40,000 bases of DNA from Maritimibacter sp. (GCA_002695005.1 NZNT01000026.1:381588-421587); one strand, 5' to 3'; positions 23,836 to 32,678 are shown, counted from the stretch's first letter. Notes: generated by a model from the sequence alone, not told the origin. Program-made: numbers and translations.

Positions 23836-24918
23836 TTATGAGCTGGTTTCCGGCGCGCCCTGAATCCGGACCTGTAGCCGGGCGAGCGCATTCGAAAGCT
23901 GTTCGGCTTCGAACGTGCGCGTCGCTTCCGATGGGAAAACCGGCTCGCCGTCAGCGATCTTCGCCGCCTCATGTGCAAGGTCGGCAAGCGGCTTGAGGTA
24001 TCGGAATGCGAACACCAGAGCCAGGACGCCGATTGCGCCCAGCAACCCGGCCACCGTCCAGATCAGATACGAGAAGACCGAACCCATTTCGGTGTTCCCC
24101 GTCGACACAGGGACGCGCACGACAAGCGACCAACCTGGCTTCGGCACGTCGCTCTCCGCGAGGATCGGGAGCACGTTTGAGACAATTCCTTCGCCACGTC
24201 CCGTCTGCACGGTATCTTCAAATCGCGAGCCCAGTTGCGCACGCGACCGGATCATGGTCGACAGTTCCGCCCCGACACGATCGCCCTGATCGAAGAGCGT
24301 TTCCGCGTTCTGGTCCAGCACCGTGACGTCGACACCAAGCCGCTCTGACGACTCCTGAATGAATCGGTCCAACCAAGCCGCATCCAAGCGGTACACGGCC
24401 AATCCGAGGATCTCACCCAATTCGTCGCGCACGGAGCGGGACATGTAGATGTATGAGTCACCTTCCGTGTCGGACGATGTCACCGTCTGCAACGTGTCGC
24501 GCCGCAGCCCCTGGTTGAACCAGATCGACGTCGATACGTCCGCGCCCTGATCCACGCCCATCGTCGCCGCGTCGACCTTGCCGTCCAGTCCGACCACGGC
24601 AGCCCAGGTCACGCCTTCGGACGCCATTGCGGCCGCGTCCGTGAGAACCCGCATGCTGTCGTAATCGCCGACATCGACGAAAGAGCTGAAGCCAACGAGG
24701 CTCTCCCATTCCCGGGTGATCAAAGTCGAAACCGCCAATTGGATCGCACGCGCGGCATGTTGAGTCGCATCTCCCTGTGACCGAAAGGCGAAATCCTCGA
24801 CCTTCCGTTGCAGCGGCAGGAAGACGACGAGTATCGCCAACAGGAACGCGACCGCCGCACTGATGAACAGCGTGCTGATGATGCGGGGCTGGTATGACTT
24901 GCGGACTGAATGGGGCAT
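23836..24918 (-). CDS. Membrane sensor-like protein: TM, ~250-aa periplasmic (Cache-like?) domain, TM, HAMP-like helix pair, no output domain
   Basis: TM1 is IISTLFISAAVAFLLAILVVFLPL and TM2 is VFSYLIWTVAGLLGAIGVLALVFAF. The HAMP-like segment is RYLKPLADLAHEAAKIADGE…EAEQLSNALARLQ, after which the protein ends. The Cache assignment is a size and topology guess. Confidence 0.6.
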   Translation of the reverse strand: MPHSVRKSYQPRIISTLFISAAVAFLLAILVVFLPLQRKVEDFAFRSQGDATQHAARAIQLAVSTLITREWESLVGFSSFVDVGDYDSMRVLTDAAAMASEGVTWAAVVGLDGKVDAATMGVDQGADVSTSIWFNQGLRRDTLQTVTSSDTEGDSYIYMSRSVRDELGEILGLAVYRLDAAWLDRFIQESSERLGVDVTVLDQNAETLFDQGDRVGAELSTMIRSRAQLGSRFEDTVQTGRGEGIVSNVLPILAESDVPKPGWSLVVRVPVSTGNTEMGSVFSYLIWTVAGLLGAIGVLALVFAFRYLKPLADLAHEAAKIADGEPVFPSEATRTFEAEQLSNALARLQVRIQGAPETSS

Positions 24919-24938
24919 GGTGTGAACTCGGGGTTGCG

Positions 24939-24948
24939 TTAACCTTAA
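24939..24948. promoter_or_regulatory. 10-mer TTAACCTTAA (TTAAGGTTAA on the minus strand) upstream of the sensor gene
   Basis: It is an exact reverse complement of the 10-mer at 26084-26093. Each copy reads TTAAGGTTAA in the direction of the gene it precedes. Confidence 0.35.
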
Positions 24949-25021
24949 TATCGATTATGGATTTGTCAGGAATGAGGCAAGACTTCGGTTCTCAATTAGG
25001 CTGGCGGCGAAGGCCCGAGAC

Positions 25022-26050
25022 ATGAACCGCCGCGCGCTTTTGGCTGGTCTGACTGGAGCCGTTTTGCCCTTTGCAACGTCCCGCCCTGCCTTCGCCGACG
25101 CAGAACCAATCTGGTCAGACTGGAAAGCGCGGTTTCTTGAAGCCAACGGGCGCGTCGTCGACAGTCTTCAGGGCAACGCGAGCCATTCGGAAGGACAAGG
25201 ATACGGCCTTCTGCTTGCGCAGGCATTCGGCGATCGCGACGCTTTCGACGCTATCGAGTCCTGGACCCGGGGACATCTCCTGATCCGGGACGACACGCTT
25301 ATGGCCTGGCGGTGGCGGCCCGAGGAAGCCGACCCCGCAACCGCCGACAATCGCGACTGGCATACCGCCACGGACGGCGACCTATTCCGTGCCTGGGGGC
25401 TTTTGCGTGCGGACACGTTTTCGGGCTGGGGCGATTACGGGGCGGAGGTTCGCCGCATCGCCGAAGCGCTCGCCGCGCTCTGCCTGAAACCCGACCCGCG
25501 TGCCCCGGGTGAAGTGGTGCTCACGCCGGGGGCCGAGGCCCTGGGCACGCCCGACCGTGTTCTGTTCAACCCGTCCTACGTCATGCCGCGCGCGCTACGC
25601 GAACTGGGCGCGTATTCCGGTGTGACCGAACTGATCCGGGCGGCGGATCACGGCGAAACCATTCTGGCCGAACTGGCGGCAACGGGGCTGGTGCCCGACT
25701 GGAGCATGATCACGCCGACCGGGTTCGCCCAGCCTGAAGGTTTCGGCACCAACCACGGCTATGACGCGATACGGGTCGCGCTCTACCTGCACTGGTCGGG
25801 GCAGAAGACGCACCCCGCGTTGACGCAAAAGGCCGGCGTCTGGTCCGGGGCCCCCGCCCTGCCCGTCGTTCTGACGCCAGAAGGACAGGTGATCGAGCGC
25901 AGCACTTTTCCCGGCTACCATGCCATCGCCGATCTGATCGCTTGCCGCCCGGTCGCCCCCCACCCGGATCAGGGCGAACCCTACTACCCGGCCACCCTTG
26001 GCCTGTTGTCACGCGTCGCCCGGCGGGAAAGCGGCCTTTGTCCGGCTTGA
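25022..26050 (+). CDS. Glycoside hydrolase family 8 endoglucanase (BcsZ/CelY-like), secreted
   Basis: It has a Tat/Sec-like leader (MNRRALLAGLTGAVLPFATSRPAFA). The GH8 signature region is ASHSEGQGYGLLLA, followed by …ATDGDLFRAWGLL…. Confidence 0.82.
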   Translation: MNRRALLAGLTGAVLPFATSRPAFADAEPIWSDWKARFLEANGRVVDSLQGNASHSEGQGYGLLLAQAFGDRDAFDAIESWTRGHLLIRDDTLMAWRWRPEEADPATADNRDWHTATDGDLFRAWGLLRADTFSGWGDYGAEVRRIAEALAALCLKPDPRAPGEVVLTPGAEALGTPDRVLFNPSYVMPRALRELGAYSGVTELIRAADHGETILAELAATGLVPDWSMITPTGFAQPEGFGTNHGYDAIRVALYLHWSGQKTHPALTQKAGVWSGAPALPVVLTPEGQVIERSTFPGYHAIADLIACRPVAPHPDQGEPYYPATLGLLSRVARRESGLCPA

Positions 26051-26083
26051 AAGCTTCCACACTTTCGACAATCTCTGCGTGTG

Positions 26084-26093
26084 TTAAGGTTAA
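26084..26093. promoter_or_regulatory. 10-mer TTAAGGTTAA upstream of the HlyD-like gene
   Basis: See 24939-24948. This copy lies 34 to 55 nt upstream of the alternative starts of the membrane-fusion gene. Confidence 0.35.
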
Positions 26094-26147
26094 TTCAAAA
26101 CACAGGTTCTGCGGCTGATCGCCGTAGTGAATTTCAGGAGGCACGTC

Positions 26148-27293
26148 GTGCGGTATCTTCGCCTCGTCATCGGTTCCATCGTCATCATCGGCGCGCTCTA
26201 CATCCTCGTGGCCGAGCATGTGACGGGTGCCAGCTCTAACGCGTTCGTCAACACCCCGGTCGTCACTGTCCGCTCGCCCGTCGCAGGTGACATCCAGATC
26301 GCCACCCGCACCGTCGGGGCCGAAGTCACGACCGATACGGTCCTGTTCAACGTCAGCGACGTGCGCGCCGACGGTGTCCGGTTGGACGACCTGATTCTGG
26401 AGCATGAACGCGCGCTTGCCGAGGTCGAACGCCTCCAAGGGCAAAAGACCGCGCTCGAGGATCACAGTGCGCGGCTTGACCGGCGACGTGACGCCTACGC
26501 TGCGGCAAGAACGCGGGAGCTTGCCCTCATGGCGGACCAGCCCGTCGATGGCCCTCTGCCTGACCTCTCCGATCCCGAAAAATTCGAGGACCTCAACGTC
26601 GCACAACCCGTGGTCGATACCGCGACGGAAGAACCGAACGGGGATACTCAGGCCAGCTCGACGCTTGCCGGGCTGCGACTGGACGCTGCAACCGGCGACG
26701 TTTTCCTTGATGGTTCGGCGGGCGCGACATGGAATTATGGCTATTGGGCCGAAACGGCACGCCATCAGCTCGCGCGCCTGGAAACCGATCTTTCAGCGGC
26801 TCAATCAATCGCGAAATCCTATGACGACCGGATCGCGCGCGAGCGGGTTCGCATGATCCGCCTGACCGGAGGCGACATCATGTCCCCGGCCAACGGGATC
26901 ATCTGGGAACGGATGGTCGGCGACGGGGTCAACGTCCAACGCGGCGACCCGATCATGAAGGTGGCGGACTGTTCCTCGGCCGTGGTGTCGCTGAGCGTGT
27001 CTGAAATCGTCTACAACCGCCTGCGCACCGGAGACCCGGCCACGTTCCGTCTGTCGGGTGCCGACGCGGTCATGGATGGCACCGTCGCGCGGCTCGCCGG
27101 TGCCGGAGCCGCCACGGTCTATGACGACATGGCGGTCAAACCCAGCAGAGAGCACCTCGAACGCTACGACGTGACGCTGATCGTGCCGGAGCTGCGGGAC
27201 GCGGACGGATCGGGCGGCTGTGGAATCGGGCGCACGGGCCGCGTGTTCTTCGAAGACCGACCGCTGGACCCGCTGCGCCGCCTTCTCAACTAG
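26148..27293 (+). CDS. HlyD-family membrane-fusion protein (BgsB-like partner of the glucan synthase)
   Basis: GTG at 26148 is preceded by AGGAGG plus 6 nt; the track start at GTG 26127 is in frame. The protein has an N-terminal TM (LRLVIGSIVIIGALYILV) and lipoyl-hairpin halves (VRSPVAGDI… and …IMSPANGIIWERMVGDGVNVQRGDPIMKV). A coiled-coil lies between them. Confidence 0.78.
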   Translation: MRYLRLVIGSIVIIGALYILVAEHVTGASSNAFVNTPVVTVRSPVAGDIQIATRTVGAEVTTDTVLFNVSDVRADGVRLDDLILEHERALAEVERLQGQKTALEDHSARLDRRRDAYAAARTRELALMADQPVDGPLPDLSDPEKFEDLNVAQPVVDTATEEPNGDTQASSTLAGLRLDAATGDVFLDGSAGATWNYGYWAETARHQLARLETDLSAAQSIAKSYDDRIARERVRMIRLTGGDIMSPANGIIWERMVGDGVNVQRGDPIMKVADCSSAVVSLSVSEIVYNRLRTGDPATFRLSGADAVMDGTVARLAGAGAATVYDDMAVKPSREHLERYDVTLIVPELRDADGSGGCGIGRTGRVFFEDRPLDPLRRLLN

Positions 27294-27302
27294 GCCGGCG
27301 CG

Positions 27303-29282
27303 ATGATCTATCCGAGCGACCTTGGGTCGAGCTTCAACCAACTGGCCCTGATATTGGGGATCGCCGTCGTGATCCCGTTGATCTTCGACAAGTCCAAGCC
27401 CACCCATCGCGTCGCGATGCTTTCCGTCGCCATCGTCCTCGCCCTGCGCTACATCTTCTGGCGAGCGACCGAGACTATCGCGCCGTTCGGCCTGACCCTG
27501 GACTGGGCGGCCAGTTGGGCTTTGCTCGCACTCGAAGCTCTGGCCCTGATCGGTTCGCTCAGCGCCTTTGTCATCATGATGCGCGTCAAGTCCCGCTCGA
27601 CCGAGGCGACCGACCACGCGAACTGGTGGGGGCCGGCGGGCGACCCGTCCGTCGCCCTCCTGATCGCGACCTATAACGAAGACCTCGACGTTCTCGAACG
27701 CACGATCATCGGGGCCAAGGCACTGCGCCACCCGAACAAGGAAGTACTCGTGCTCGACGACGGGCGGCGCGATTGGCTGCGCGATTTCTGCGCCCGCTCC
27801 GAAGTCGGATACATGCGCCGCCCGGACAACAAAGATTCCAAGGCCGGCAATATCAACCACGCGCTCCAACGACTGGTCGAGCGGGACAGCCCGCCCGATT
27901 ACGTCGCCGTGCTGGACGCCGACTTCGTGCCGCATCGCGGATTCCTGCGCCGCTCACTCGCCTTGTTCCACGACCCCGGCGTCGGCCTCGTCCAGACGCC
28001 GCAGCATTTCTTCAATGCCGACCCGATCCAGCACAACCTCGGCGTCAGCCAGTCCTACCCGGACGAGCAGCGGTTCTTCTTCGACCACATGCAACCGTCA
28101 CGGGATGCCTGGGGCATCGCGTTCTGTTGCGGCACGTCATCGGTCATCCGGTTCTCGGCGCTTCAGGATATCGGGGGATTCCCGACCGAAAGCATCACCG
28201 AGGACTTCATGTTGACCTTGGCACTGCAAAACCACGGCTGGCGCACGGTGTACCTGAACGAGGCACTGACCGAGGGGCTCGCCCCCGAAGGACTCAAGGA
28301 ATACGTCACGCAACGCGCGCGCTGGTGCCTTGGCCTCATGCAGATCGCGCGCGGCTCGCTCGGACCCTTCGCCAGAAACAACCTGCGCCTGCGGGATCGG
28401 TGGAGCGTCATGGACTCGGTCTTCTACTGGCTCACGACCTTCACCTTCCGCCTCGCGGCGCTCGTGTTCCCCCTGCTCTACTGGTACGGCAACGTGACGG
28501 TGGTGAATGCCCAGCTTGCCGATGTCGTGTCCTATTTCGGTACCTATTATCTGTGGATTCTGCTCACCCTGAACCTGCTGTCGCGGGGGCATGTGGTGCC
28601 GGTCCTCAACGACGTCCGCCAATTGATCGGTGCCTATCCCATCGCGCGCTCCGCAATCACCGGTCTGATCAAGCCTTACGGCCACCCGTTCAGCGTCACC
28701 GCCAAGGGGGGCGACCGCAGCAAGATCGTCGTTCAATGGCGCATGATGTTGCCCTTCGCGGTCATGCTCGCCCTGACGCTCGTTGGCCTCTGCCTCGGCG
28801 TGTTTACGGACAGGTTTGCGTTCTTCGACGCGGGCGACGGCAAATGGGTCATCCTGTTCTGGACGCTTTACAACATCGTCGTCCTGTCGGTCACGCTTGT
28901 GGCCTGTGTCGAGCTGCCCCGGCGCGAACGCCATGTGGCGGATGCGCCGGAACAGGTCCGCGTCACATTCGGGGGGCATGACCTGAAGCTGTGGATGACG
29001 AACCTCACCCTCGACCACGCCCGTCTGCGCGGTCGCAAGTTCGACGTGGGGACGCGCGGCAGCATCGAACTCGCCGGGGTCGGCTCGGTGCCGGCCTATG
29101 TGAGCGAGAAATCAGGCGACGGCGTCCGGCTCCAACTCCTGCCCGACGATCAACAGCGCGCCGCGCTGTTCCTGCGCTTTCATGCAGAGGACAACACGCC
29201 GGGCATATCCAACGTGCGCATGTCCGCCATGTTGCGCGATATCGCACGCCGGTTCACCTTCAGTTCGGCACGGAAGTCATGA
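27303..29282 (+). CDS. Processive family-2 glycosyltransferase, cellulose-synthase-like beta-glucan synthase with a C-terminal PilZ-like domain (BgsA/BcsA-like)
   Basis: Catalytic motifs are present: VLDDGRRD, LDADFVP (DxD), QTPQHF, TED (ESITEDF) and QRARW (28311-28325). There are multiple TM helices on both sides. The C-terminal ~124 aa is a beta-rich domain beginning PRRERH. Confidence 0.85.
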   Translation: MIYPSDLGSSFNQLALILGIAVVIPLIFDKSKPTHRVAMLSVAIVLALRYIFWRATETIAPFGLTLDWAASWALLALEALALIGSLSAFVIMMRVKSRSTEATDHANWWGPAGDPSVALLIATYNEDLDVLERTIIGAKALRHPNKEVLVLDDGRRDWLRDFCARSEVGYMRRPDNKDSKAGNINHALQRLVERDSPPDYVAVLDADFVPHRGFLRRSLALFHDPGVGLVQTPQHFFNADPIQHNLGVSQSYPDEQRFFFDHMQPSRDAWGIAFCCGTSSVIRFSALQDIGGFPTESITEDFMLTLALQNHGWRTVYLNEALTEGLAPEGLKEYVTQRARWCLGLMQIARGSLGPFARNNLRLRDRWSVMDSVFYWLTTFTFRLAALVFPLLYWYGNVTVVNAQLADVVSYFGTYYLWILLTLNLLSRGHVVPVLNDVRQLIGAYPIARSAITGLIKPYGHPFSVTAKGGDRSKIVVQWRMMLPFAVMLALTLVGLCLGVFTDRFAFFDAGDGKWVILFWTLYNIVVLSVTLVACVELPRRERHVADAPEQVRVTFGGHDLKLWMTNLTLDHARLRGRKFDVGTRGSIELAGVGSVPAYVSEKSGDGVRLQLLPDDQQRAALFLRFHAEDNTPGISNVRMSAMLRDIARRFTFSSARKS

Positions 29283-29399
29283 TAATTTTGCGATGGCCCG
29301 CACATTAATCCACTGAACGCGCCGCAATCAGGAATTCTCAACTCATATCGCTTGTTGACCTACCTTTGACATGCGCTGCGCTCAGACGAACGCAATAAA

Positions 29400-29747
29400 T
29401 CACAGTGAACCGTTTAGCGTTTCCACCATGAATGCGACGTCGCCGTAGTCCCGATCGCCCCCGCCGGTTTGATCCTCGAACCCAATGGTGATGGATTTCC
29501 CGCCGGCATTGACGCCAGACAGGGCATGTTGCACGCCGTCTGAATTCAAGCTCTCAGAATAGCTGTGGAAAATCTTCAAATCTTCCGTGGAGCCATTCAA
29601 TTGGAGATACAGGTCGCTGCCATCAGATACTTTGGCTGCTTCGCCGATCCCGTTCACGAACCCGAATGTGTCCGTGTCTGACACCGTTGAGGCCAACCCA
29701 GCCGCGTCTTGCAAAATGAAAAAGCCGAGGCTGTTGCCAGCTTCCAC
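29400..29747 (-). CDS. DUF4114-like domain protein fragment (possibly the 3' part of a frameshifted gene)
   Basis: The C-terminal part reads …GGKSITIGFEDQTGGGDRDYGDVAFMVE, matching my memory of the DUF4114 GFED…GGGD.D(Y/F).D signature. The only start is GTG at 29747. An upstream overlapping frame (to 29923) reads on as …GDLAATDARALAGAFEAK…. GC content is lower here. Confidence 0.5.
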   Translation of the reverse strand: MEAGNSLGFFILQDAAGLASTVSDTDTFGFVNGIGEAAKVSDGSDLYLQLNGSTEDLKIFHSYSESLNSDGVQHALSGVNAGGKSITIGFEDQTGGGDRDYGDVAFMVETLNGSL

Positions 29748-29986
29748 GTCCGTAATCGTCGTTTGCGCCGTTTTGTCAGCCTTGGCGTTTGCGAATGCAC
29801 TTTCGCCTCGAACGCCCCAGCCAAGGCGCGTGCATCGGTTGCGGCCAAATCACCGAAAACCCGTCGGTCCCGTTCAAAGCTGCTTGCGATCTGCATTTCT
29901 CGCGTCCCGTTAACAAAAGACAATGCCTCGCATGCAAGGCGCTCCTAACAGGTAGGCATACCTCAAATGCAAAAGGAGTTCTTCGT

Positions 29987-30538
29987 ATGAAAATCGAACA
30001 CAGCGGCAAGGCCACAATCCTGTTCGGGCTGGGCGCCACAATCATCTATCTTGTCATGGTACTGGGCACGCTCAGGTATCTGACCGATCTTGCAGGCGCG
30101 CTGCCTTTCGATCTGCGGCCCTCAGGGTACACACAGGCTGACGCCGAAGGTCTGCTGGAAGCACTCGGCGGGAGAGGGCGCAACTATTATCTCACTCGGC
30201 AGATCCCCCTCGATACGCTCTACCCCGCATTGCTTGCGCTGACCCTGATTTCGGCATTGCGATGGCGTTCCTTCAGGTTCGGGCCGACGCTGATGACCAA
30301 GATAGGCGGAGCCTTGGCAATCCTGGCCGCGACTTTCGACTATCTGGAAAACCTTGGCATAAGCCTCATGCTGCTGACTGGATCAGGGTCAGACCTTGCG
30401 CTGGTAACGGCCATAAGCACAGCGACGATCTTGAAATCTGCTCTGACGACGGCGTCCGTACTTGCCTTGATCGTAAGTCTACTATTGGTCCTGTTCAGTC
30501 GCATGTTGAGTGCACGCAGCACCCCGGCCGCGCGCTGA
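29987..30538 (+). CDS. Hypothetical integral membrane protein (183 aa)
   Basis: The ATG at 29987 is preceded by AAAGGAG. There are four or five hydrophobic segments (…ATILFGLGATIIYLVMVLG…, …ALLALTLISAL…, …IGGALAILAATF…, …ASVLALIVSLLLVLF…). I recognise no family. The upstream part of the 249-aa track ORF was rejected. Confidence 0.55.
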   Translation: MKIEHSGKATILFGLGATIIYLVMVLGTLRYLTDLAGALPFDLRPSGYTQADAEGLLEALGGRGRNYYLTRQIPLDTLYPALLALTLISALRWRSFRFGPTLMTKIGGALAILAATFDYLENLGISLMLLTGSGSDLALVTAISTATILKSALTTASVLALIVSLLLVLFSRMLSARSTPAAR

Positions 30539-30888
30539 TAAGATGTCTCGGCTCATCTGCGCTGAGCCTGCATCCAAAACCGCTCAGCCCGACGAAAAGC
30601 GAAGAATTACCCCTGCGCTCAGAACGATTATCCGCTTGATATCGGCGCCCGAAAAAATCTGTGTCGTCCCAGCAGGGTTTCGTCGAGGAAATCGACGAAA
30701 AGCCGGACGCTGCACCCGGCGCGGGTCGGCTTGCATCAGCACCCATGTTGAGCGGCGCTGGTCGGGGTCGGTCCCTCTTATTCCGCGCAGAGACCGCGCC
30801 GTTCGGTCAGAGCGGCGGCGCAGCCTCGAACATGGATCGGCTTGAGAGGCTCCGTTCTTCGTTGAAGTGTCTTGAGACAGAAGCGTGG

Positions 30889-31000
30889 CCCGGTGGGCAA
30901 CTGGATCGGCCAGCGCCTGCCCCGCGAGACGTTCGCGCGCATTGCCTTCGGGATTCTCGGCGTGCTAGCGATCTGGCTGACTTACGCTCCGCTCGGCTGA
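30889..31000 (+). pseudogene. 3'-terminal relic of a second TauE/SafE (TSUP) gene
   Basis: About 112 bp align without gaps to 5806-5916, the 3' end of the intact TSUP gene. By hand count there are about 14 mismatches. The in-frame reading is PVGNWIGQRLPRETFARIAFGILGVLAIWLTYAPLG*. Similarity stops abruptly at about 30889. Confidence 0.8.
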
Positions 31001-31015
31001 CCCGCCGCGCCGCCC

Positions 31016-31975
31016 TCAGCCCGGTTTGACCAGCCGGTTGCGCAGCACACCGATCCCCTCGACCTCGAGTTCGACCACGTCGTCCGGTTTCAGGAAGCGC
31101 ATGTGTTCCAGGCCGCAGCCATTGCCCACTGTGCCGGAGCCCAGAAACTCGCCCGACCGGATCGTCTCGGAGGCCGATATGTGTTCGATCAGGTCCGCGA
31201 AACTCCAGTGCATCGTCGACGTGGAGCCACGGCCCCATTCTTCTCCGTTCACCCGGCAGATCATCGTCTTGTCATAGGGATCACCGAATTCATCGGCTGT
31301 CACGAGGCACGGGCCCATCGGGTTCGCCGTGTCGAAATCCTTGCCCTTGGCCGGGCCGAGCGATCCGCCCATCTCGGCGGTCTGGGCATCGCGGGCCGTG
31401 AAGTCGTTGAAGATCGTGTAGCCGAAGACGTGATCCATCGCGTCGGCCTTTTTCACATCCTTGGCCGGTTTGCCGATGTAGACGCCGAACTCCAGTTCGA
31501 AATCCATGAAGTTGGAATAGCCGGGCCATATCACGTCATGCTCGTGCCCAACGACAGAAAAGCGGTTGGCTTTGTAATAGATCGGCTGGTCGTAGAACGT
31601 CTGCGGCACCGACAGGATGCCCTGCTCTTCCATCTCGCGTTCGGCGGCTTCCGGATCGGGCATCTGGCTCGCCCGCAGTTTGCGCGCCTGCTTGAACGCC
31701 TGGATCAGGTGGGTCTCGAAACACAGGCAATCGCGCATCTGCGGTGGCGGCTCGATGGGGGCCATCAGCCGGACGTCGTCCAATGATACCTGTGTGCTCC
31801 CCTTGGCCGCATCCTGCGCCTGTGCCAGCGCGCTTTCGCCGCCTTCGGCGATCCACAAGACCGACTCCACAGCGCCTGATGAGTTGGCAGCCAAGTCGGC
31901 AATCCTGCTGCCGTCCCCGACCAACGCGCCGGGCCGACCGATCCCGTCGCCCGTATCGTATGTGACAAGTTTCAT
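31016..31975 (-). CDS. Fumarylacetoacetate hydrolase (FAH) family protein
   Basis: The translation shows the FAH-fold pattern (…YYKANRFSVVGHEHDVIWP…ELEFGVYIGK…GYTIFNDFTARD…GPAKGKDFD…). GGGAGGA lies upstream of the ATG. Confidence 0.82.
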   Translation of the reverse strand: MKLVTYDTGDGIGRPGALVGDGSRIADLAANSSGAVESVLWIAEGGESALAQAQDAAKGSTQVSLDDVRLMAPIEPPPQMRDCLCFETHLIQAFKQARKLRASQMPDPEAAEREMEEQGILSVPQTFYDQPIYYKANRFSVVGHEHDVIWPGYSNFMDFELEFGVYIGKPAKDVKKADAMDHVFGYTIFNDFTARDAQTAEMGGSLGPAKGKDFDTANPMGPCLVTADEFGDPYDKTMICRVNGEEWGRGSTSTMHWSFADLIEHISASETIRSGEFLGSGTVGNGCGLEHMRFLKPDDVVELEVEGIGVLRNRLVKPG

Positions 31976-31997
31976 GCGAGTTCCTCCCTGAATGTCC

Positions 31998-32678
31998 TTA
32001 GTCTTCCGATCCGCGTGTCTGGTCGCGATCCCGGTATTTCAGTCCGGCGACAAGGATCGCGCACATGTGGCGCGCGGCCTCCTCCCAATTGTCGGACGAC
32101 ACACGCCCCCCGGAGAGCCGCGCCATGCGGCCATTATCCGTCATGACGATCATCATGGCCCCGAGCATCGTGTGATAGGCCCAGTGAACCTCTTCCAGCG
32201 TCCAGTCGGGAAAGCACTTCGATATAGCATCGGTCAGCATCTCGGCCACGGGGTCGAACATGTCGCGGAAAATGCCCCGCGCTTCTGACTGCGGGTCCGA
32301 CATTTCGCGCACGATCATGCGCCCGAAATCCGCGGACGGGCTTTCGCCACGTAGCGAGAACATCGGGTAGATCAGCGCCTTGACCACGAGGTCGATGCGC
32401 CGGTCGAGGTCCGGTTCGGCCCGCGCGAGCCTCAGCCCGGCGATCCGCTGATCCATGATAGCCGGCGCGCGCTTCTCGAAAATCGCGCGGTACAGCCCGG
32501 CCTTGGATCCGAAGTGGTAGTTGATGAGCGCGACAGGCACCCCCGCCTCTTCCGAGATCCGGCGGACCGAGGCCCCGTCGAAACCCCATTCCGCGAAGAC
32601 CGATTCGGCGGAGGCGAGGATTCGCTCCTTCGAGGTTTCGCCCTGATCGGCCTTGTTTCGTTGGGGTTTGATGGTCAT
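31998..32678 (-). CDS. TetR/AcrR family transcriptional regulator
   Basis: From the ATG at 32678 the translation reads MTIKPQRNKADQGETSKERILASAESVFAEWGFDGASVRRISEEAGVPVALINYHFGSKAGLY. This is the TetR HTH. The gene lies 22 nt upstream of the FAH gene. Confidence 0.88.
   Translation of the reverse strand: MTIKPQRNKADQGETSKERILASAESVFAEWGFDGASVRRISEEAGVPVALINYHFGSKAGLYRAIFEKRAPAIMDQRIAGLRLARAEPDLDRRIDLVVKALIYPMFSLRGESPSADFGRMIVREMSDPQSEARGIFRDMFDPVAEMLTDAISKCFPDWTLEEVHWAYHTMLGAMMIVMTDNGRMARLSGGRVSSDNWEEAARHMCAILVAGLKYRDRDQTRGSED

Follow-up and report, generated by a model that had tools for sequence, protein, structure and literature searches.

Linear bacterial beta-glucans (cellulose, curdlan and polymers of mixed linkage) have roles in biofilms, in attachment to hosts and algae, and in biotechnology. 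Their synthases were divided into six clades by Oehme et al. (2019), with BcsA in clades 1 and 2, CrdS in clade 3, BgsA in clade 5, a clade 4 of unknown function, and the cyanobacterial enzymes in a clade 6 of their own that contains cyanobacteria only (PMC6821405). In Sinorhizobium meliloti the output of the BgsBA system requires TolC (PMC13438883), and cellulose export by HlyD/TolC proteins is attributed to cyanobacterial Thermosynechococcus by Maeda et al. (2018), as cited in PMC8892547. Here we analyze a 40,000-nt stretch of DNA from Maritimibacter sp. (GCA_002695005.1, NZNT01000026.1:381588-421587; the window), part of a 4.27-Mb assembly that is 99.8% complete. An initial annotation, made from the sequence of the window, had described at positions 23836-29282 a compact bgsBA-like locus encoding a sensor, a GH8 glucanase, an HlyD-type protein and a GT2 synthase. 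The list of open reading frames (ORFs) and domain scans placed all four genes exactly there, and our results show that the locus is a true self-contained unit of synthase, adaptor, glucanase and a sensor without output domain. In marine Rhodobacterales it probably directs the production and export of an uncharacterised beta-glucan. The reading that we hold to be the probable one is that of a GT2-HlyD-TolC beta-glucan export module with trimming by GH8 and a Cache/HAMP regulatory subunit, operating without BcsB and BcsC.

Gene content and conservation of the cassette

The synthase gene (27303-29282, plus strand) encodes a BcsA-like processive GT2 protein of 659 aa. The full set of processive motifs ascribed to it is present (D152-D153, D205-A-D207, Q231TPQHF236, T299ED301 and Q337RARW341) and falls within a GT-A catalytic domain of residues 115-350 (27645-28352, plus strand), matched by Pfam Glyco_tranf_2_3 over residues 115-342. 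Across 42 homologues the DD, DxD, QTPQHF, TED and QRARW motifs are invariant, as is the gating-loop motif FxVTxK (F463-S-V-T-A-K468). Against TIGR03030 (CelA) the protein scored 380 bits, far under the equivalog cut-off of 699 bits. Its AlphaFold2 (AF2) model (pLDDT 81) superposes as a whole, including the C-terminal barrel, on BcsA (Foldseek, TM 0.82-0.84).

Directly before the synthase, on the same strand, lies the gene of an HlyD-family adaptor (26127-27293, 388 aa), whose stop at 27293 is separated by 9 nt from the GT2 start at 27303. The adaptor matches HlyD_3 (E 2.1e-13) and HlyD_D23, and aligns over its full length with BgsB of S. meliloti (25% identity over 370 aa, E 2e-24). The first possible start of this ORF is GTG 26127; the true one is probably GTG 26148, since it is preceded by AGGAGG (26136-26141) and the relatives read AGGAGGCACATG at this point. 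The lack of BcsB and BcsC genes, noted before for the locus, extends to the entire genome: searches with PF03170 (BcsB) and PF05420 (BcsC) gave no match, with positive controls. A second BcsA-like gene was likewise not found in the whole genome, where the sole other match was an unrelated GT2 protein with 24% identity. At least five genes of TolC-family (OEP) channels are present in the genome. In a tblastn search, the adaptor also matched the protein encoded upstream of the CrdS-type synthase, in the CrdA position, on Agrobacterium plasmid pAspH13-3a (L007:3342-4796; 22% identity, E<1e-5). Because of this match, CrdA may be a divergent membrane-fusion protein, in which case curdlan export would be HlyD/TolC-like as well.

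One gene upstream of the adaptor is the GH8 gene (25022-26050, plus strand, 342 aa), a genuine additional component in comparison with BgsBA. Its product matches Glyco_hydro_8 (PF01270, E 3.7e-43) and its N-terminus, MNRRALLAGLTGAVLPFATSRPAFA (MNRRALLAG...AFA), resembles a twin-arginine translocation (Tat) signal. Best matches among PDB entries were 5czl, 6vc5, 5gy3 and 1wzz (CMCax), with E values of 1e-36 to 8e-32, and the catalytic residues, Glu57 of SEGQG and the Asp of YDAIR, are intact and aligned with those of endoglucanases from cellulose operons. By these features the protein is a CMCax/BcsZ-type endoglucanase, predicted to reside in the periplasm. The fourth gene (23836-24918, minus strand, 360 aa) is divergently transcribed and encodes a membrane protein with dCache_1 and HAMP domains. 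A decaying or non-functional locus was ruled out: all four ORFs are intact, the catalytic residues are kept and identity across genera is 60-90%.

To describe the conservation of the locus we used a scan with one genome per species (80 loci) supplemented with nine plasmid loci (89 in total). The same four-gene module occurs in about 80 species, mostly Rhodobacterales, and since the genes recur together with unrelated flanks they are not chance neighbours. The most frequent arrangement is GH8-HlyD-GT2-Cache with a convergent Cache gene (41/89 loci), followed by HlyD-GT2-Cache (14/89). Ten of the 89 loci have the order seen here, with a divergent Cache gene ahead of GH8-HlyD-GT2, which occurs as well in other members of Maritimibacter and in Tranquillimonas, Mesobacterium, Pseudooceanicola and Histidinibacterium; HlyD-GT2-Cache-GH8 is equally common (10/89). 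GH8-HlyD-GT2 accounts for 2/89 loci, and in 2/89 the Cache gene is on the synthase strand. Overall, about 77 of 80 loci of the clade (~95%) have the Cache/HAMP gene next to that of the synthase, in four arrangements. Loci whose synthase shares at most 40% identity with ours contain HlyD-GT2 only (BgsBA, Bradyrhizobium elkanii, Phyllobacterium, Nisaea and Thalassospira). Clustering of all ORFs from 76 loci revealed no fifth conserved gene, be it for a diguanylate cyclase, TolC or a kinase, and the further clusters obtained were shadow ORFs on other frames. On plasmid pAT of Agrobacterium C58 (L001:11186-13677) the genes next after Cache encode a sensor histidine kinase and a protein with an ATPase domain, an association that is not conserved in the other loci.

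Nucleotide similarity to the four closest relatives is limited to the cassette itself (23850-29276), and the flanks are unrelated even within Maritimibacter. The cassette is often plasmid-borne or located between insertion sequence (IS) elements, and of the 201 genera sampled within the family as defined by GTDB only 8 had the sensor. Based on these three observations the cassette is patchy in distribution and probably mobile. Right after the synthase stop the G+C content falls to 0.59-0.61 (29283-32000); as similarity to the relatives also ends at about 29276, the cassette adjoins a variable patch.

Lineage, C-terminal tail and likely product of the synthase

Among named organisms the closest GT2 proteins are those of Maritimibacter (83-90% identity; 88% for M. 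alkaliphilus HTCC2654). Identity is 63% over the full length with a protein encoded on pAT of Agrobacterium fabrum C58, 37% with BgsA of S. meliloti (pSymB; residues 16-626, the tail being hardly alignable), 34.5% with the CrdS-type protein from the crdA-crdS-crdC context of pAspH13-3a, and about 27-30% with BcsA proteins (~30% for that of Escherichia coli). A maximum-likelihood (ML) tree of 18 sequences was built in IQ-TREE. The GT2 protein did not group with BcsA, which is split from all other sequences at 100/100. It forms a 100/100 clade with the Agrobacterium pAT protein, and this is joined by a plasmid-encoded protein of Bradyrhizobium barranii in a clade supported at 97/99. The BgsA proteins of S. 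meliloti and Rhizobium leguminosarum make up a separate, long-stemmed clade (100/99), CrdS forms a single long branch, and the backbone between the non-BcsA groups is not resolved. The genera of the homologues found here coincide with those listed for clade 4 in the S4 Table of PMC6821405, i.e., Maritimibacter (A3VA50), Agrobacterium (A9CLP5), Thioclava, Sulfitobacter, Pseudooceanicola, Roseivivax, Salipiger, Loktanella, Bradyrhizobium and Azospirillum. On this ground we assign the synthase to clade 4 and not to the BgsA orthologues, the match being an indirect one, through genera, the 88% and 63% identities and the tree. Thus, 'bgsBA-like' is appropriate for the layout of the locus and not for its lineage. 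In the strain M. alkaliphilus SY-2-18 we observed two HlyD-GT2 pairs (L094, L033), one in a clade-4 cassette with GH8 and Cache genes (68% identity) and a distant one without partners (40%).

The synthase was read at the 33 'differentially conserved' specificity positions (S8 Table of PMC6821405, numbered after BcsA of Rhodobacter sphaeroides). As an internal control, the protein of the crdASC context had every CrdS state and two BgsA proteins had every BgsA state. At 12 positions (249, 276, 285, 296, 298, 299, 302, 317, 336, 357, 376 and 500) the Maritimibacter synthase has the state common to CrdS and BgsA and not that of BcsA. Among the positions that separate CrdS from BgsA, it has the BgsA state at seven (295, 309, 318, 322, 359, 402 and 562) and the CrdS state at 320, 321 and 480; position 479 is Ser, as in CrdS, in the rest of the clade and Arg in Maritimibacter. 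Five further states (387, 410, 412, 465 and 501) are unique yet conserved in the clade. In the overall tally, 7 positions count as BgsA-like, 4 as CrdS-like and about 6 as unique. The signature is thus a distinct one from which linkage is not inferable, and the caution of the initial annotation, that sequence does not reveal the linkage, is right.

Many database records of the homologues carry a curdlan (beta-1,3-glucan) synthase name, close homologues being called 'Curdlan synthase' by several sources, and the three CrdS-like positions fit with it. However, the CrdS-specific V295, V/I318, F322, W359, Y/F402 and A/S562, all of which are found in the crdASC-context protein, are replaced by P, C, S, Y, L and N, respectively, and the CrdS-type protein stands on its separate long branch. 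A dedicated GH8 partner would also make little sense for curdlan, since no GH8 enzyme in CAZy is known to cleave beta-1,3-glucan. We therefore consider a curdlan synthase highly improbable.

A pure beta-1,4 cellulose system of the cyanobacterial 'tripartite' type, i.e., a synthase with an HlyD-like protein, TolC and an endoglucanase, is a more serious candidate, if still an unlikely one. The gene content agrees with that given for Thermosynechococcus in PMC8892547, the GH8 protein is closest to the CMCax and BcsZ enzymes of cellulose operons, and the whole synthase fold matches BcsA. Yet, the synthase is set apart from BcsA with full support, its channel and active site have the state common to CrdS and BgsA at the 12 positions given above, and the cyanobacterial synthases belong to clade 6 (PMC6821405). 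Two weak pointers to linkage are the GH8 protein of beta-1,4-endoglucanase type and channel residues like those of two enzymes that form beta-1,3 bonds. Because of these two features our best guess at the product is a beta-1,4-containing glucan, possibly of mixed linkage, with cellulose as the second choice and curdlan unlikely.

The C-terminal tail of the synthase (residues 539-659; 28917-29279, plus strand) was examined with AF2 and hhalign. The AF2 model shows six strands at residues 550-612 followed by helices. At the sites of the two c-di-GMP-binding signatures of PilZ domains the tail reads PRR---ERH and NLTLDH, so that both RxxxR and (D/N)x(S/A)xxG are gone. The 3-residue deletion (PRR---ERH) and the loss of (D/N)x(S/A)xxG are common to about 79 clade members at or above 52% identity, and in our tally both motifs were absent from 82 tails and both kept in five. 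The tails that carry RxxxR and DxSxxG are those of Azospirillum, Phyllobacterium, B. elkanii, Nisaea and Thalassospira; the Pfam PilZ threshold is passed by the tails of B. elkanii, Phyllobacterium and B. barranii, with Azospirillum just under it. For the Maritimibacter protein, scanning the tail by itself against Pfam, with E values up to 10 allowed, gave no PilZ match, and a profile of 12 clade tails retrieved only noise from PDB sequences. As these direct scans were empty, we argue the homology through the PilZ-positive sister tails, with which the motif-less tails align at 97.9% probability (hhalign, E 6.6e-13, 117 columns), and through the predicted fold. On that evidence the tail is a decayed PilZ domain, folded as a putative six-strand barrel with helices and devoid of both motifs. 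The tails of BgsA (L002:5950-7959) and of the CrdS-type protein (L007:4935-6902) are colinear with the PilZ-positive tails of related HlyD-coupled synthases, which suggests decayed PilZ domains both in the CrdS tail and in what was called a 'novel' c-di-GMP domain in BgsA.

The state of the tail matters for a further candidate, namely that the locus is a true BgsBA orthologue, making a strictly alternating beta-1,3/1,4 glucan by a GT2 that is switched on when its C-terminal tail binds c-di-GMP. The same HlyD-GT2 pair with 9-nt spacing, the BgsB homology, the absence of PilZ motifs from both tails, the seven BgsA-like positions among those separating BgsA from CrdS, and the presence of three GGDEF and three EAL proteins in the genome are all in line with it. 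In BgsA, R599 and H615 were shown experimentally to bind c-di-GMP (PMC5567048), and R605, D608, Y633, G635 and R656 are required for activity. However, tail alignment placed R599, R605 and D608 in a 13-residue insertion that only BgsA has and that is without counterpart in our GT2 protein; H615 is aligned with Leu, Y633 with H and G635 with E, and R656 alone is kept. Since the binding residues are absent, activation by c-di-GMP cannot be transferred from BgsA, and the comparison with c-di-GMP-activated BgsBA made in the initial annotation holds for the layout only. Other points against orthology are the identity of only 37% with a hardly alignable tail, the position of BgsA in its separate long-stem clade (clade 5, not 4; PMC6821405), the five unique states, and the lack of a GH8 or Cache partner at BgsBA loci. 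We regard orthology as improbable. As for the regulation itself, c-di-GMP control of the Maritimibacter synthase is possible but not to be assumed. The whole genome gave three GGDEF and three EAL matches and no PilZ domain recognisable by Pfam.

The Cache/HAMP protein and control of the synthase

The divergently encoded sensor consists of a first transmembrane segment (TM1), a periplasmic double-Cache region (residues ~40-275), a second transmembrane segment (TM2) and a HAMP domain, after which the chain ends, 6 residues past AS2. In a scan of the single protein the dCache_1 match was weak; among orthologues, dCache_1 was matched by 47/48 and HAMP by 23/48 (Pfam). The sensor profile matched the HAMP domain of Tsr and the Cache domains of PctA and KinD in PDB. 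The AF2 model (pLDDT 87.7) has a long transmembrane and stalk helix, two PAS-like modules, and TM2 that continues as AS1 of HAMP and is followed by a connector and AS2, with the sensor domains of DctB, KinD, Tlp3 and PctA as neighbours in Foldseek. No kinase, GGDEF/EAL or methyl-accepting chemotaxis protein (MCP) output follows HAMP in this protein or in about 70 orthologues. As the lengths of these orthologues are uniform (~355-410 aa), the absence of an output domain is a trait of the family and not a truncation. The protein diverges fast (24-30% identity vs. 60-72% for GT2); its AS2 segment is nearly invariant at E337, S342, A344 and L345. The neighbour annotated as 'cache and HAMP' in Azospirillum belongs to the same family (hhalign 100%, E 5e-43). 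Most orthologues keep a periplasmic FAGDVHxAxLLA...PLRFxDLA segment, the best-conserved of the sensor family, whereas this segment is absent from the Maritimibacter sensor (24430-24500, residues ~139-153) and about 14 others, mostly from loci with a sensor gene relocated away from the convergent position. This suggests two sensor subtypes that may differ in ligand binding.

Both the sensor gene and the hlyD-GT2 pair are preceded by promoter-like boxes. A promoter- or operator-like TTAAGGTTAA box is located 21 nt before the start codon of the sensor gene (24939-24948, minus strand), and before hlyD-GT2 there is a promoter-like element (26063-26093, plus strand) in which TTTCGACAAT (26063-26072) is followed after 11 nt by a second copy of TTAAGGTTAA (26084-26093), 34 nt upstream of the HlyD ORF. 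These two copies, each oriented toward its own gene, are the only ones in the window, with 0.16 expected. In the four closest relatives (L016, L017, L018 and L045) the TTTCGACAAT and TTAAGGTTAA boxes of the GH8-HlyD spacer are kept, and so is the TTAACCa core of TTAAGGTTAA. A simple sigma-70 scan called no promoters, the 26063-26093 element included, and a scan for terminators performed no better than on shuffles. Conservation of the boxes before hlyD-GT2, and the sharing of TTAAGGTTAA with the sensor, suggest an internal promoter for hlyD-GT2 and make co-regulation with the sensor possible.

An objection to a role in glucan synthesis is that the Cache/HAMP protein may function as an independent sensor, or be what remains of one, and simply be carried along with the locus. 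It is usually encoded on the opposite strand and would thus be transcribed separately, it is absent from the GH8-HlyD-GT2 locus of Pacificitalea, and it has evolved faster than the synthase. On the other hand, adjacency to the synthase has persisted through four rearrangements in nearly all loci, and in B. barranii and Tranquillimonas the gene is on the same strand and operonic. A truncation remnant is contradicted by the uniform length and domain layout of the orthologues. The near-invariance of the AS2 motif and the box common to the sensor and hlyD-GT2 also point away from an unrelated function. An independent role is in our opinion quite unlikely. The sensor-like protein of the initial annotation is a genuine extra component and, beyond this, a conserved core member of the cassette rather than an incidental neighbour. 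Because it lacks an output domain and is locked to the synthase in four gene orders, we propose that it acts as a regulatory subunit.

A stronger version of this proposal, which we put forward tentatively as possible though not expected, is that the synthase has the sensor built in as an allosteric subunit, with a periplasmic ligand gating polymerisation directly through contacts of HAMP with the degenerate PilZ barrel or the gating loop. The ligand might be an oligosaccharide released by GH8. The clade would then be a record of a hand-over from c-di-GMP to the sensor, with partner and intact PilZ in Azospirillum, and partner and decayed PilZ in Rhodobacterales and Agrobacterium. If such a hand-over happened, the partner would have been gained first, since Azospirillum has both; the tree supports this order only weakly (63/75). 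If the sensor were such a subunit, the signal controlling a polysaccharide synthase would come from outside the cytoplasm and take the place of c-di-GMP.

Proposed function and relation to known systems

Taking the predicted functions together, glucose would be polymerised from UDP-glucose by GT2 in the inner membrane, as expected from the chemistry of the family, and the chain would pass through the enzyme's own transmembrane channel, as in BcsA, CrdS and BgsA. The HlyD adaptor would bridge the periplasm to a TolC-family outer-membrane channel, by homology to BgsB and by analogy with S. meliloti and cyanobacteria. In the periplasm, Tat-exported GH8 may trim or release the chain, in the manner of BcsZ and CMCax. 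The dCache-HAMP protein would sense a small periplasmic molecule and convey the signal via TM2 and HAMP to the synthase or the adaptor, and such control would supplement or replace c-di-GMP/PilZ gating, the motifs of which are lost clade-wide. The predicted product is a linear beta-glucan with beta-1,4 bonds, perhaps of mixed beta-1,3/1,4 linkage, and not necessarily the strictly alternating polymer of BgsA.

Several points weigh against this model. GH8 is absent from about 20% of clade loci (present in ~80%), and Pacificitalea has GH8-HlyD-GT2 with no Cache gene. The sugar and its linkage are deduced from family membership and the GH8 neighbour, and the residues common to CrdS and BgsA may reflect common descent and not chemistry. 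The role of the Cache/HAMP protein in a synthase complex is drawn from gene neighbourhood, and the Azospirillum relative combines a Cache partner with an intact PilZ motif, from which it follows that the partner does not simply replace PilZ. The motif-less tail of BgsA still binds c-di-GMP (PMC5567048), so that c-di-GMP control is conceivable in our protein as well. In the literature searched we found no experimental work on any clade 4 member, and no paper linking HlyD, Cache and GH8 proteins to such a synthase.

The synthase clade itself was already known, and what is defined here is its complete, portable four-gene cassette, which is independent of BcsB/BcsC. The analysis that defined clade 4 (PMC6821405) covers the catalytic core of the synthases only, and neither the HlyD, GH8 and Cache neighbours nor the state of the C-terminal domain are described there. 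Our results also indicate an unusual control element, an output-less Cache-HAMP protein paired with a PilZ domain stripped of its c-di-GMP motifs. At 5.4 kb and often plasmid-borne, the cassette is a compact target for asking what clade 4 enzymes produce and whether a synthase can be gated from outside the cytoplasm.

With the Bcs system (BcsA-BcsB-BcsZ-BcsC; PDB 4HG6, 4P00) the Maritimibacter module shares the BcsA fold with its C-terminal barrel, the catalytic motifs and a BcsZ-like GH8 enzyme. It differs from Bcs in the absence of BcsB, BcsC and the PilZ motifs, in the low identity of the synthases (~27-30%) and in their separate clades. The genes for tripartite cellulose secretion in cyanobacteria are dispersed, whereas those of Maritimibacter form one cassette. 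Common to both is that a synthase, an HlyD-like protein and an endoglucanase replace BcsB/BcsC, with export through TolC presumed; the cyanobacterial synthase belongs to clade 6, and no Cache/HAMP partner is known for that system. In BgsBA of S. meliloti and Rhizobium etli (PMC5567048, PMC9495663, PMC13438883), as here, an HlyD gene lies right upstream of a BcsA-like GT2 gene encoding ~660 aa, BcsB and BcsC are missing, the tail is without PilZ signature motifs, the adaptors are homologous over their full length and TolC-family channels are available. In turn, GH8 and the dCache-HAMP protein are found in the Maritimibacter module only, the c-di-GMP-binding residues and their insertion in BgsA only, and the two synthases, 37% identical, belong to separate clades, with specificity positions in the Maritimibacter enzyme that are partly BgsA-like.

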